In this document: positions 98 through 30,608 of the stretch, in pieces | How the letters are laid out: each line of letters begins with the position of its first letter | Position numbering within the stretch: the first letter of the stretch is position 1 | Virus record (IMG/VR): IMGVR_UViG_2778261624_000006 | DNA from: a virus | Lineage: Duplodnaviria > Heunggongvirae > Uroviricota > Caudoviricetes | Direction: 5' to 3' (one strand) | Length of the DNA: 35,065 nucleotides | Notes under the pieces: generated by a model | What the model saw: only the letters and a program-made list of their open reading frames with translations | The model's database searches: none | Told to the model about the DNA's origin: nothing | Translations under genes and position numbers: made by a program

Positions 98-673
98 CTA
101 CGGCAGTGCTGGCCATTCAATATCCTGTGCAGTTGACGTATCAACACGGTTCAGCAACACCCGATACTTTTTCCAGGCTTCCAGCAATGAGGTTTCTTCC
201 TCCGTTGCGATTTCCAGATCTACAGCATCCTGAAGTGGCGCAATATGCTCACTGGCTACCTGCATCAGGCTGTTTTTTGTTTCTTCCGCCTCTCGGATCC
301 GGAACAGTTTTTCTGCTTCTGCATCTTTCACCCAGGCTGTGCCGTTCCACTTCTGAAACTCCCCTTCCGGCGATAACCAGGTAACATTTTCCGGTAACGG
401 ACCGAGTTCAGAAATAAATAACGCGTCCCCTGACGCTACGTCATAAACCGTTTTACCCCGATGGTCTTCAACGAGATGCCACGATGCCTTATCACTGTTG
501 AAAACAGCCACAAAGCCAGCAGGAATATCTGGTGGTGCAATATCGGTACTGTTTGCTGGCAGACCTGTATGAGGCGGAATATATGCGTCACCTTCACCAA
601 TAAATTCATTAGTTCCGGCCAGCAGATTATAAATTTTTATGGTCCGTGGTTGTTCACTCATTCTGAATGCCAT
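98..673 (-). CDS. tfa: tail fiber assembly protein (Tfa)
   Basis: 191-aa ORF immediately downstream of and overlapping the side tail fiber gene; sequence recalled as lambdoid Tfa; stop TAG at 98-100. Confidence 0.85.
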
Positions 674-29266: not shown

Positions 29267-29355
29267 AAACGTCCCCGTTTAGCGCAGAAGTCACCGGAGT
29301 TGTTCAGGCTCCGATGACATGATTATGGCGAGTTGATTATCGCAAATCAAAGGTT

Positions 29356-29712
29356 TTAATTGTGCTTTATTCCTTCAAGCGTTGCCTTCATACCAACCAA
29401 AGAAATGTTTAGCTCTCCAACTTTCTCAGGGCTATATAATTCAGAATGAAGCCAATATTCTGATTTATCTAAACATCTTTTAGCCAGCTCTCGATCAAAG
29501 TCTACGACTTGGGAAGACGCTTCATACCAAAGCCTATAAAGTTTTTCTTCTTCGTTTGGGTTATTAGGCTCACCACGTTTTAATTTTTCAGTATATAAAA
29601 TTGTTGAATAAATCGCAGGAGTTAATCCAGTGATTGCCCTCTGCCGCAGATCGGATTTGTTTGTTATCCACCCCAACAGACGATCTCCCATCCATGTGAT
29701 AATTGTATCCAT
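29356..29712 (-). CDS. hypothetical protein (118 aa), no family recognised; AT-rich gene
   Basis: Clean ORF with plausible start; no transmembrane segment or signal peptide; no motif I can place. Confidence 0.6.
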   Translation of the reverse strand: MDTIITWMGDRLLGWITNKSDLRQRAITGLTPAIYSTILYTEKLKRGEPNNPNEEEKLYRLWYEASSQVVDFDRELAKRCLDKSEYWLHSELYSPEKVGELNISLVGMKATLEGIKHN

Positions 29713-30173
29713 GCTTTAGCCCTTCTTAGTAAATAGTGTGTAGGGCGACTGAAGGACCGAGTTTATGCTTTTTCGCATTGCTTTCAGTTAGTACACCGGT
29801 ATCGCACCGGAAACAATCCTACGGCAAATTGGTTGTCTGACCTCTCGGTTTTTCGTGCATTAACCGATACCCACTACAGTCTCGGCGAAAGCTGCACACC
29901 CCCAGGGTGTACTGGTAGCACTCGGCACAGCCTAGCACGCCACTTTCTTCTCACTATCCAGTCTAATTTTATCCCCTAGTCAGACACTCAGATGTAGTGC
30001 TCCGCAGCGGCATGCGGGGGAATACAAAAACTCGGACAAAATTGGGCCCTCCTTTTTGAATCACTCGCGGGGATGTAGTTATTAATACATGGAAAAAGAT
30101 CTGTTTTCAAATCCAACATTATATGGTTTCAATACCACGGGGTGGCTATGTGTTTCTCATTGTTAATTGGAAT

Positions 30174-30497
30174 CTACTGTAATCGATCCGAACGTAAATG
30201 CGGCAAAACTCGACTCCACTTATCATCCTGCCACGGCCGGAATTTTACATGTGCCGTTTCTCTGGCAAGGATTGCCTGTGCCTTATTGAGTATCTGGGGA
30301 TATTCTTGCTCGATAGAAGTGAAGCGACCAGCTTCACGATGCTCCGCAACCTGAAGAAGAGGAGTAACGTTCTGGTAGGTAATTAACATCACATTCCCTG
30401 CTCGCCATAACCAGGCGAGTGTGCAAAGTTCGTTATCAGTGAATTGTTTTGTGATTGGGTATTGTTGAACTGCTAGAACGAGAACGCCAGCATCCAT
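30174..30497 (-). CDS. hypothetical protein (107 aa), no family recognised
   Basis: Clean ORF; an extended -10 promoter-like element lies upstream; no recognisable motif. Confidence 0.6.
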   Translation of the reverse strand: MDAGVLVLAVQQYPITKQFTDNELCTLAWLWRAGNVMLITYQNVTPLLQVAEHREAGRFTSIEQEYPQILNKAQAILARETAHVKFRPWQDDKWSRVLPHLRSDRLQ

Positions 30498-30575
30498 TGG
30501 CAGTCTCTATAGTAAAACCATAGCTCAGGACGCTTCGTTCAGGATAGATAATTTTATTGTACTTACCTAACTTTC

Positions 30576-30590
30576 TTATTATAGCACGGT
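30576..30590 (-). promoter_or_regulatory. candidate extended -10 promoter (TGcTATAAT) for the 107-aa gene
   Basis: Minus strand reads GTGCTATAATAAG about 80 nt upstream of the ATG at 30497; no good -35 element. Confidence 0.4.
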
Positions 30591-30608
30591 TGAAAAAGTG
30601 ATTATTAC

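Follow-up and report, generated by a model that had tools for sequence, protein, structure and literature searches.

The stretch of DNA analyzed here (the window, 35,065 nucleotides in full) represents a lambda-like E. coli prophage of the DLP12 type that is integrated at tRNA-Arg. Read along the minus strand, its genes run from the replication genes through a ren-like gene, emrE, ylcJ, ybcK and a 107-aa gene to a spacer, beyond which lie a 118-aa gene and then ybcN/ninE/ybcO/rusA/ylcG/quuD (Table 1). The original prediction had singled out this gap as unusually long, devoid of ORFs on the gene-bearing strand and moderate in GC content, and all of these points are borne out: the gap measures 461 bp between the end of the 107-aa gene and the start of the 118-aa gene, its largest minus-strand ORFs (39, 31 and 43 aa) are not conserved, and its GC content is 46.2%, as compared with 27-38% in the other spacers of the window. 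The overall value proves to be a mixture, in that a core of 51.2% GC is preceded by 99 bp (30075-30173) of only 32.3%.

Table 1. Features of the spacer and its surroundings. Position n of the RNA corresponds to window coordinate 30075-n.
Feature	Window coordinates	Strand	RNA positions	Remarks
ybcK	32135-30609	minus		large serine recombinase; upstream of the 107-aa gene
107-aa gene	30174-30497	minus		P22 antirepressor C-terminal domain only (PF10548, E = 1.1e-15); outside the RNA unit
Spacer	29713-30173			between the 107-aa and 118-aa genes
CCATAT(A/G)(A/T)T motif	30118-30126	minus		conserved; just upstream of the -35-like hexamer; reads TATAAT in the window
Promoter-like element	30082-30110	minus		TTGAAA (30110-30105), 17-nt spacer, TATTAA (30087-30082), 7 nt to RNA position 1
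Structured RNA core	30074-29743	minus	1-332	332 nt
5' domain	29971-30074	minus	1-104	P1 (1-6/99-104), P2/P2a/P2b arm (7-61), P3 hairpin (66-90)
19-codon ORF	29980-30039	minus	36-95	UUG at 36 to UGA at 93-95
Candidate pseudoknot, upstream arm	29978-29985	minus	90-97	GUCUGAC[U/C]
3' domain	29747-29963	minus	112-328	217 nt; enclosed by P4 (112-117/323-328)
Junction helix		minus	121-125/216-220	inside P4
Branched arm		minus	128-188	inside P4
Hairpin 163-181	29894-29912	minus	163-181	contains ACACCC-CCA-GGGTGT; conserved in most lineages
Hairpin 189-212		minus	189-212	inside P4
P8		minus	226-231/314-319	inside P4
Candidate pseudoknot, downstream arm	29835-29842	minus	233-240	GGUCAGAC, within the invariant block GAGAGGUCAGACAACCA
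Variable hairpin		minus	259-284	3' domain
Invariant hairpin		minus	297-310	3' domain; AUGC-GAAAAA-GCAU
Linker	29713-29742	minus		30 nt, from the core to the 118-aa start codon (ATG); window lineage lacks a terminator
118-aa gene	29356-29712	minus		phrog_12412; frequent but not obligatory partner of the RNA

Two short GC-rich inverted repeats had also been pointed out within the gap, and both are present, ACACCC-CCA-GGGTGT at 29896-29910 and CCGCA-GCGGCA-TGCGG at 30002-30017. The first corresponds to a conserved hairpin. Conservation is lacking for the second, in which most relatives show uncompensated changes of the partner bases; these bases pair instead within helices P2 and P3 of the fold described below. 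Taken alone, the window sequence folds no better than its shuffled versions (z = -0.23 for the minus strand and -0.56 for the plus strand). These near-zero scores indicate that the hairpins by themselves do not exceed chance, and that the signal comes from comparison with relatives. As regards the remainder of the prophage, the only match at an Rfam gathering threshold in the whole window is a full-length IS009 (RF02111; 132-330 on the minus strand, 226.7 bits), and to the left of the window (L107 9707-10752) a frameshifted serine/threonine kinase gene lies between kil and the repressor region, a stretch in which no N-like gene is annotated.

Relatives of the core are found in 159 of 5,426 complete E. 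coli genomes, with no annotated feature beneath the spacer copies among the E. coli matches listed. The spacer is likewise present in four deposited phages, two of which, Escherichia phages Turner and IdasGreatGrand, have a pair of tiny ORFs annotated within it. In Klebsiella phage Kp4856-1 and in E. coli 3426, copies that are 78-83% identical have altogether different genes on either side, and copies of 77-83% identity sit amid different genes on many viral and metagenomic contigs as well. In all, 99 loci and 33 distinct variants were assembled, by pattern scans of viral and metagenomic contigs as well as from contigs encoding homologs of the 118-aa protein; a first set of 30 variants was later joined by three more. 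The variants come from E. coli prophages, Klebsiella phages, Enterobacter bugandensis, Obesumbacterium proteus and metagenomes, and all 33 are 330-332 nt long and at least 77% identical.

Searches beyond these sources returned nothing further. Among the species-representative genomes of GTDB, a first pattern gave no matches and a second gave only GC-rich chance matches in Streptomyces and in metagenome-assembled genomes, which nhmmer rejected. The RNA was not found in a plasmid collection, and rescanning the viral contigs with a different anchor yielded no new loci, such that the viral-contig collection looks exhausted. Literature searches by keyword and by strings of the RNA sequence retrieved no description of the RNA. 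Two individual loci stand apart from the rest. On viral contig L045 (3066-3371), the RNA is cut within its last hairpin, near position 306, and fused to unrelated DNA, a break that may mark an insertion or rearrangement junction. In the Obesumbacterium proteus prophage L108 (1796-2637), some 840 bp without a called gene separate replication gene P from the RNA; this interval contains only short unconserved ORFs and a chance-level SdsR-like match (18 bits, E = 2.8).

Alignment of the variants reveals invariant blocks that alternate with segments varying in a paired fashion. An RNAalifold consensus, refined by hand, produced a model of 98 pairs in 16 helices. On alignment A3, which comprises 30 variants, 95.5% of pair cells are canonical, as opposed to 36-44% when the partners are slid by one to three columns; across alignments, pairing stands at about 95% against 34-44% in the slid controls. 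Compensatory changes, in which both sides of a pair differ, affect 19 pairs on A3 and 21 on A5 (31 sequences, with three variants more than the A3 set). These 19-21 pairs are the outcome of the comparative alignment that the original prediction had proposed as a check. The covariation score on A3 is 0.214, compared with 0.125 for shuffled alignments (none of 500 reached the observed value) and about 0.05 for the slid controls. With every copy at least 77% identical, the family is a narrow one; as a result, a good many pairs show no variation, and common descent inflates some of these counts. G-U cells make up 11.4% of pairs, and the same model imposed on the opposite strand is 84.4% canonical; the proportion of G-U pairs identifies the minus strand as the RNA strand.

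The best-supported helices are 128-133/183-188 and 137-140/154-157 (three compensatory pairs each), 189-197/204-212 (five to six), 259-269/275-284 (four) and 121-125/216-220, together with the single pair 226:319. Most compensatory changes thus fall in the 3' domain. The 5' domain is nearly invariant, and its P2a, P2b and P3 helices accept only changes that keep pairing, such as A-U to G-U; pair 73:84 of P3 switches from G-C to A-U in two variants. Within the 3' domain, the hairpin that includes the first of the inverted repeats carries a pair, 165:179, that is A-U in 11-12 variants and U-A in eight; the L066/L002 lineage has a degenerate version of this helix. The two domains may be joined by an invariant 8-bp pseudoknot. 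Its candidate arms, RNA 90-97 and 233-240, are exactly complementary in 31 of 31 variants; position 97 is U or C opposite G233, preserving the pairing, and both arms are otherwise invariant, which places them beyond the reach of covariation. A local 3-bp hairpin (233-235/242-244), also invariant, is the alternative to this pairing. Together, the covariation, the strand-specific G-U pairs and a conservation that is independent of the neighboring genes lend strong support to the earlier suggestion that the gap encodes a structured non-coding RNA, and we consider it very probable that the spacer holds a new family of structured phage RNA.

Examination of the genes around the RNA shows that none is conserved beside it across lineages. 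Depending on the lineage, the gene that follows encodes the 118-aa protein, a 95-aa protein, a 178-aa membrane protein, a 183-aa protein or a DUF1367 protein, making at least five unrelated downstream genes. Upstream, the 107-aa ORF, which has no N-terminal domain, resembles a piece of an antirepressor gene, either truncated or standing alone, and in other RNA-bearing lineages it is replaced or cut to a 28-aa remnant. A second large E. coli lineage, typified by L010, illustrates both kinds of change: its RNA is 98.5-99.1% identical to the window copy, its 118-aa gene bears a 137-nt deletion, and its upstream gene has been replaced, leaving only a 28-aa remnant of the P22 antirepressor C-terminal domain. 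Identity to the window in this lineage is 94.9% over the 99 bp upstream and 83-95% over the alignable sequence further downstream. Part of the L010/L016-type lineage (for example, in the flanks of L010 4931-5262) also has an 8-nt duplication, CACATAGC, upstream of the promoter-like element.

None of the downstream genes has an assigned function. AlphaFold2 models the 118-aa protein as a four-helix bundle (pLDDT 80), and a fold search against the PDB found no significant match (best E = 0.3). A HEPN assignment was considered for this protein and rejected, since the corresponding rows were weak (TM 0.3-0.44) and the conserved Rx4-6H motif is absent. A 51%-identical homolog on L112 (300-656) has a phage integrase gene and a DNA pol III theta-like gene as neighbors and is not preceded by the RNA, which indicates that the 118-aa family exists independently of the RNA. 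In Kp4856-1, the 183-aa gene (L003 3394-3945, minus strand; phrog_27260), which begins some 22 nt beyond the RNA's terminator, encodes the string RLRHNLLH, an Rx4H-like motif recalling HEPN RNases, and its product has no PADLOC or Pfam match. The 178-aa cargo gene, which comes right after the RNA's terminator at L066 9499-10035 (plus strand) and recurs in L060, L069, L053 and L067, specifies a protein with hydrophobic N- and C-terminal segments and no match in Pfam, PHROGs or PADLOC; the gap between terminator and start codon is too short for a promoter. When searched against PADLOC, the 107-aa, 118-aa and other cargo proteins matched no known defense family.

Signals resembling those of a transcription unit flank the core. 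In 21 of 22 distinct upstream contexts, a TTGAAA/TTGAAT/TTGTAT/TTGATA hexamer is followed by a non-conserved 17-nt spacer and by TTTAAT/TTAAAT/TATTAA, with this -10-like hexamer ending 6-7 nt before AUCCCC, where the first paired base lies. As judged from the sequence, this geometry looks like that of a promoter. A scanner for consensus promoters and terminators did not flag the RNA's signals in the window, a silence explained by the lack of A at -11 or of T at -7 in most -10-like copies; given the imperfect -10 and the silent scanner, we treat the promoter as putative. The conserved CCATAT motif that precedes the -35-like hexamer forms, in several relatives, part of the quasi-palindrome AACCATATGTTGTATAGTT, and could be an operator or an alternative -10 element. 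In L070/L088, a rearrangement 60 nt upstream of the RNA has replaced the -35-like hexamer and all sequence before it; the -10-like hexamer is retained there, and the RNA is 99.7% identical to the window copy.

At the other end, 13 of 21 distinct downstream contexts contain an intrinsic terminator 4-7 nt after the core, consisting of a GC-rich 7-bp stem-loop (dG about -10.5 to -12.7 kcal/mol) and six to eight T residues. The stems are of two unrelated sequences, CCGCC... and GCCACC..., and lineages with an intact 118-aa gene have no T-run terminator between the RNA and that gene. Because the terminator varies or is missing while the core remains unchanged, it appears to be a generic end signal rather than the expression platform of a riboswitch. 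No convincing conserved pairing was detected among the 3' end of the RNA, the linker and the start of the 118-aa gene. Complementarity between the RNA and the rest of the window extends to at most 12-14 nt; such matches are roughly as numerous as chance would give, and most of them involve the variable hairpin.

From these features, we lean toward the view that the locus is an autonomous lambdoid-prophage gene whose product is a structured non-coding RNA that works by way of its fold. In such a scheme, the minus strand would be read, codirectionally with the phage early-right operon; a dedicated sigma-70-like promoter would drive transcription in addition to read-through from that operon, and the RNA would fold into the 104-nt 5' domain and the 217-nt multi-helix 3' domain. 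In most relatives it would end at its own intrinsic terminator, as a moron-like unit, and in the window lineage, where the terminator is missing, it would double as the 5' leader of the 118-aa mRNA. It would most likely work in trans by virtue of its three-dimensional shape, binding or decoying a conserved host or phage protein or ribonucleoprotein, with simple antisense pairing the less likely mode. A free-standing, fold-based RNA is favored because the core is unchanged whatever follows it and the terminator is generic and replaceable, because the invariant bases lie in junctions and loops while the helices are free to covary, and because the RNA outlasts the decay of its neighbor and no antisense target stands out. 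The conservation of the RNA, its covarying fold, its strand, the absence of a coding signal and its independence from every neighboring gene are direct observations. Weighing against autonomy, the 5' end and the promoter are predictions from sequence, most -10-like copies lacking the A at -11, and the fixed 30-nt spacing to the 118-aa gene in at least six lineages fits a leader as well as it does a free-standing role.

The strongest rival, which we hold to be possible but distinctly less probable, is that the RNA is a cis-acting leader, a constant module placed before a variable accessory slot that controls either read-through of the terminator or translation of the next gene. Its layout fits such a role: a promoter-like element, the RNA and a terminator are followed in several relatives by a gene only some 22 nt on, which leaves no room for a promoter and implies that transcription passes through both the RNA and its terminator, and the identity of that gene differs by lineage as described above. 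Moreover, intact 118-aa genes start at +362 to +364 from RNA position 1 in six divergent lineages, for the most part with a weak or absent Shine-Dalgarno sequence, and the RNA sits just upstream of ninB-like genes, a position at which lambda carries its tR2 terminator. On the other hand, the terminator stems differ or are absent, do not overlap the conserved core and have no conserved antiterminator pairing; the associated genes share no common function, unlike riboswitch regulons; the L010-type lineage has kept the RNA at 99% identity while its downstream gene decayed; and 330 nt with 16 helices far exceeds known processive antitermination RNAs, such as HK022 put (about 70 nt). A leader role nevertheless keeps its place as a tentative alternative on account of the fixed 118-aa spacing, the window copy's lack of a terminator and the genes elsewhere that come after a terminator with no promoter of their own.

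A second rival holds that the transcript is a dual-function or small-protein mRNA, in which GGAGG and a UUG codon drive synthesis of a 19-codon peptide, or else a hok-like type I toxin mRNA; we regard this as improbable. The ORF does start 8 nt downstream of an invariant GGAGG (a perfect AAGGAGG), several of the differences among variants are synonymous, and hok-type loci typically make highly structured mRNAs of about 350 nt with long-range pairing between their 5' and 3' ends. However, codon 13 is an in-frame UGA in one variant group (L006/L013/L014), and most differences, those of the C-terminal half among them, are non-synonymous and map to helix P3, which covaries. Codons 1-10 show no variation, third positions included, a pattern suggestive of constraint on the RNA itself. 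Furthermore, the peptide is not hydrophobic, the GGAGG is partly paired in the consensus fold, and no other sense-strand ORF is kept across variants, so that the 19-codon ORF probably does not encode a conserved peptide.

A third reading places the function in the DNA, as an att or crossover target of the serine recombinase YbcK or as an anchor for module exchange, and strikes us as very unlikely. The original prediction had offered a recombination site as one option, and in the window the spacer indeed follows ybcK at a distance of about 500 bp; it borders a variable gene slot, where its DNA could well favor homologous exchange as a by-product. A ybcK homolog nonetheless adjoins the RNA in only 17 of the 99 loci, all of which belong to the window's own near-identical lineage, and neither compensatory changes nor strand-specific G-U pairs are expected of double-stranded DNA. 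Sites used by serine recombinases are short stretches of double-stranded DNA, some 40-50 bp long and imperfectly dyad-symmetric about a central dinucleotide, in contrast to the strand-specific fold of 330 nt seen here, and the recombination-site suggestion is accordingly rejected.

The remaining suggestion, that a protein-coding gene decayed to leave the spacer, is scarcely credible: an antisense frame of 108-110 aa is open in some relatives (L002, L066, L067 and L054), but it contains one to four stops in the window and in four other lineages examined, variable columns fall evenly over the three codon phases (48/41/48) with no three-base periodicity in the antisense or any other frame, every frame meets stops in some variant so that none is open across all, the frame-aware search for pseudogene remnants (six-frame pieces and the longest ORFs of the relatives) matched nothing in Pfam or PHROGs, and a near-constant length of 330-332 nt with block conservation is unlike decay.

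If the spacer does encode a structured RNA, E. coli and lambda-like phages have yielded it despite being among the most searched genomes; the RNA is unannotated in about 3% of complete E. coli genomes, and an RNA with about 20 covarying pairs is present as well in the culturable phages Turner, IdasGreatGrand and Klebsiella Kp4856-1. RNAs so large and ornate usually have elaborate roles, for instance as ribonucleoprotein scaffolds, ribozymes or sensors. A broader proposal, which we put forward as doubtful, is that this undescribed class of large phage RNA forms the constant "front end" of a swappable accessory or defense slot in lambdoid phages. Were this so, the front-end RNA would either respond to a signal from the cell or from infection or target RNA polymerase or the ribosome, and would decide whether its terminator is passed and the variable cargo is expressed. 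Just as novel would be an RNA that needs no partner and acts as a ribozyme or assembles itself into a particle. The RNA of the spacer is placed at the edge of a gene slot filled with variable accessory genes, in a genetically easy, testable system, and raises the prospect that phages use RNA modules to control or protect accessory cargo.

Compared with established RNA classes, the RNA has the defining features of none of the families tested. The covariance-model scan suggested by the original prediction gave no Rfam 15 match to the RNA, either at gathering thresholds or at E<=10; at the latter cutoff, the sole match in window 29300-30600 was snoR127 (15.6 bits), outside the RNA, and relatives L066 and L108 gave only chance-level matches of at most 20 bits. 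ARAGORN found no tRNA or tmRNA in the window. Several assignments were considered and set aside. A riboswitch or attenuator does not agree with terminators that are unrelated or absent, lie 4-7 nt beyond the core and have no conserved alternative pairing, nor with downstream genes that share no single pathway or function. IS110 bridge RNA, TnpB/IscB omega RNA and retron msr-msd were each discarded for want of a cognate enzyme conserved beside the RNA, Pfam and PADLOC searches of the neighbors having found no recombinase, nuclease or reverse transcriptase domains conserved with it. A hok-like type I toxin mRNA was rejected in that no sense ORF is shared by all variants and the 19-codon ORF is not hydrophobic and is cut in one group. 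Like hok/sok mRNAs, the RNA belongs to a mobile element, measures about 350 nt as a transcript, and combines highly conserved nucleotides and distant pairing with a small ORF behind a strong ribosome-binding site; it differs from them in that a conserved hydrophobic toxin ORF and a matching antisense RNA unit are both absent, as is any Rfam match to Sok or hok.

Phage RNAs that occupy comparable positions offer further points of reference. IsrK of Salmonella Gifsy-1 (RF01394), a 77-nt element that occurs on its own as a short RNA and also heads a longer mRNA as its leader, is similarly encoded in the nin/antirepressor region of a lambdoid prophage, but it matches only the 3' end and terminator of one relative at 12.2 bits (gathering threshold 50), which is chance level. 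The put RNA of HK022, about 70 nt long, forms two stem-loops just downstream of an early promoter and renders RNA polymerase resistant to terminators. Like put and EAR, the present RNA is a phage RNA positioned after a promoter-like element and before terminators in an early operon, and could act on its own polymerase; unlike them, it is about five times larger, has a different architecture and lies far from pR, beside the nin genes, and neither EAR nor any other antitermination family in Rfam matches it. Phage morons, accessory units of lambdoid prophages with a promoter and a terminator of their own, provide a parallel in organization, as promoter-like hexamers and, in 13 of 21 downstream contexts, a terminator flank a unit that is inserted between conserved phage modules and whose presence varies among related phages, with the differences that the cargo here is an RNA rather than a protein and that the window lineage has no terminator.

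The closest counterparts in general character are the GOLLD, ROOL and HEARO-type RNAs, large orphan structured RNAs of prophages that emerged from comparative genomics. The present RNA has no sequence or structure match to these families, is smaller, at about 330 nt, and is confined to lambdoid phages of the Enterobacterales, where it holds a fixed place in the early-right operon. Yet it shares with them the nature of a long, multi-helix, covarying RNA of temperate phages and prophages with no dedicated protein adjacent, set as an island of normal GC content in an otherwise AT-rich gap.
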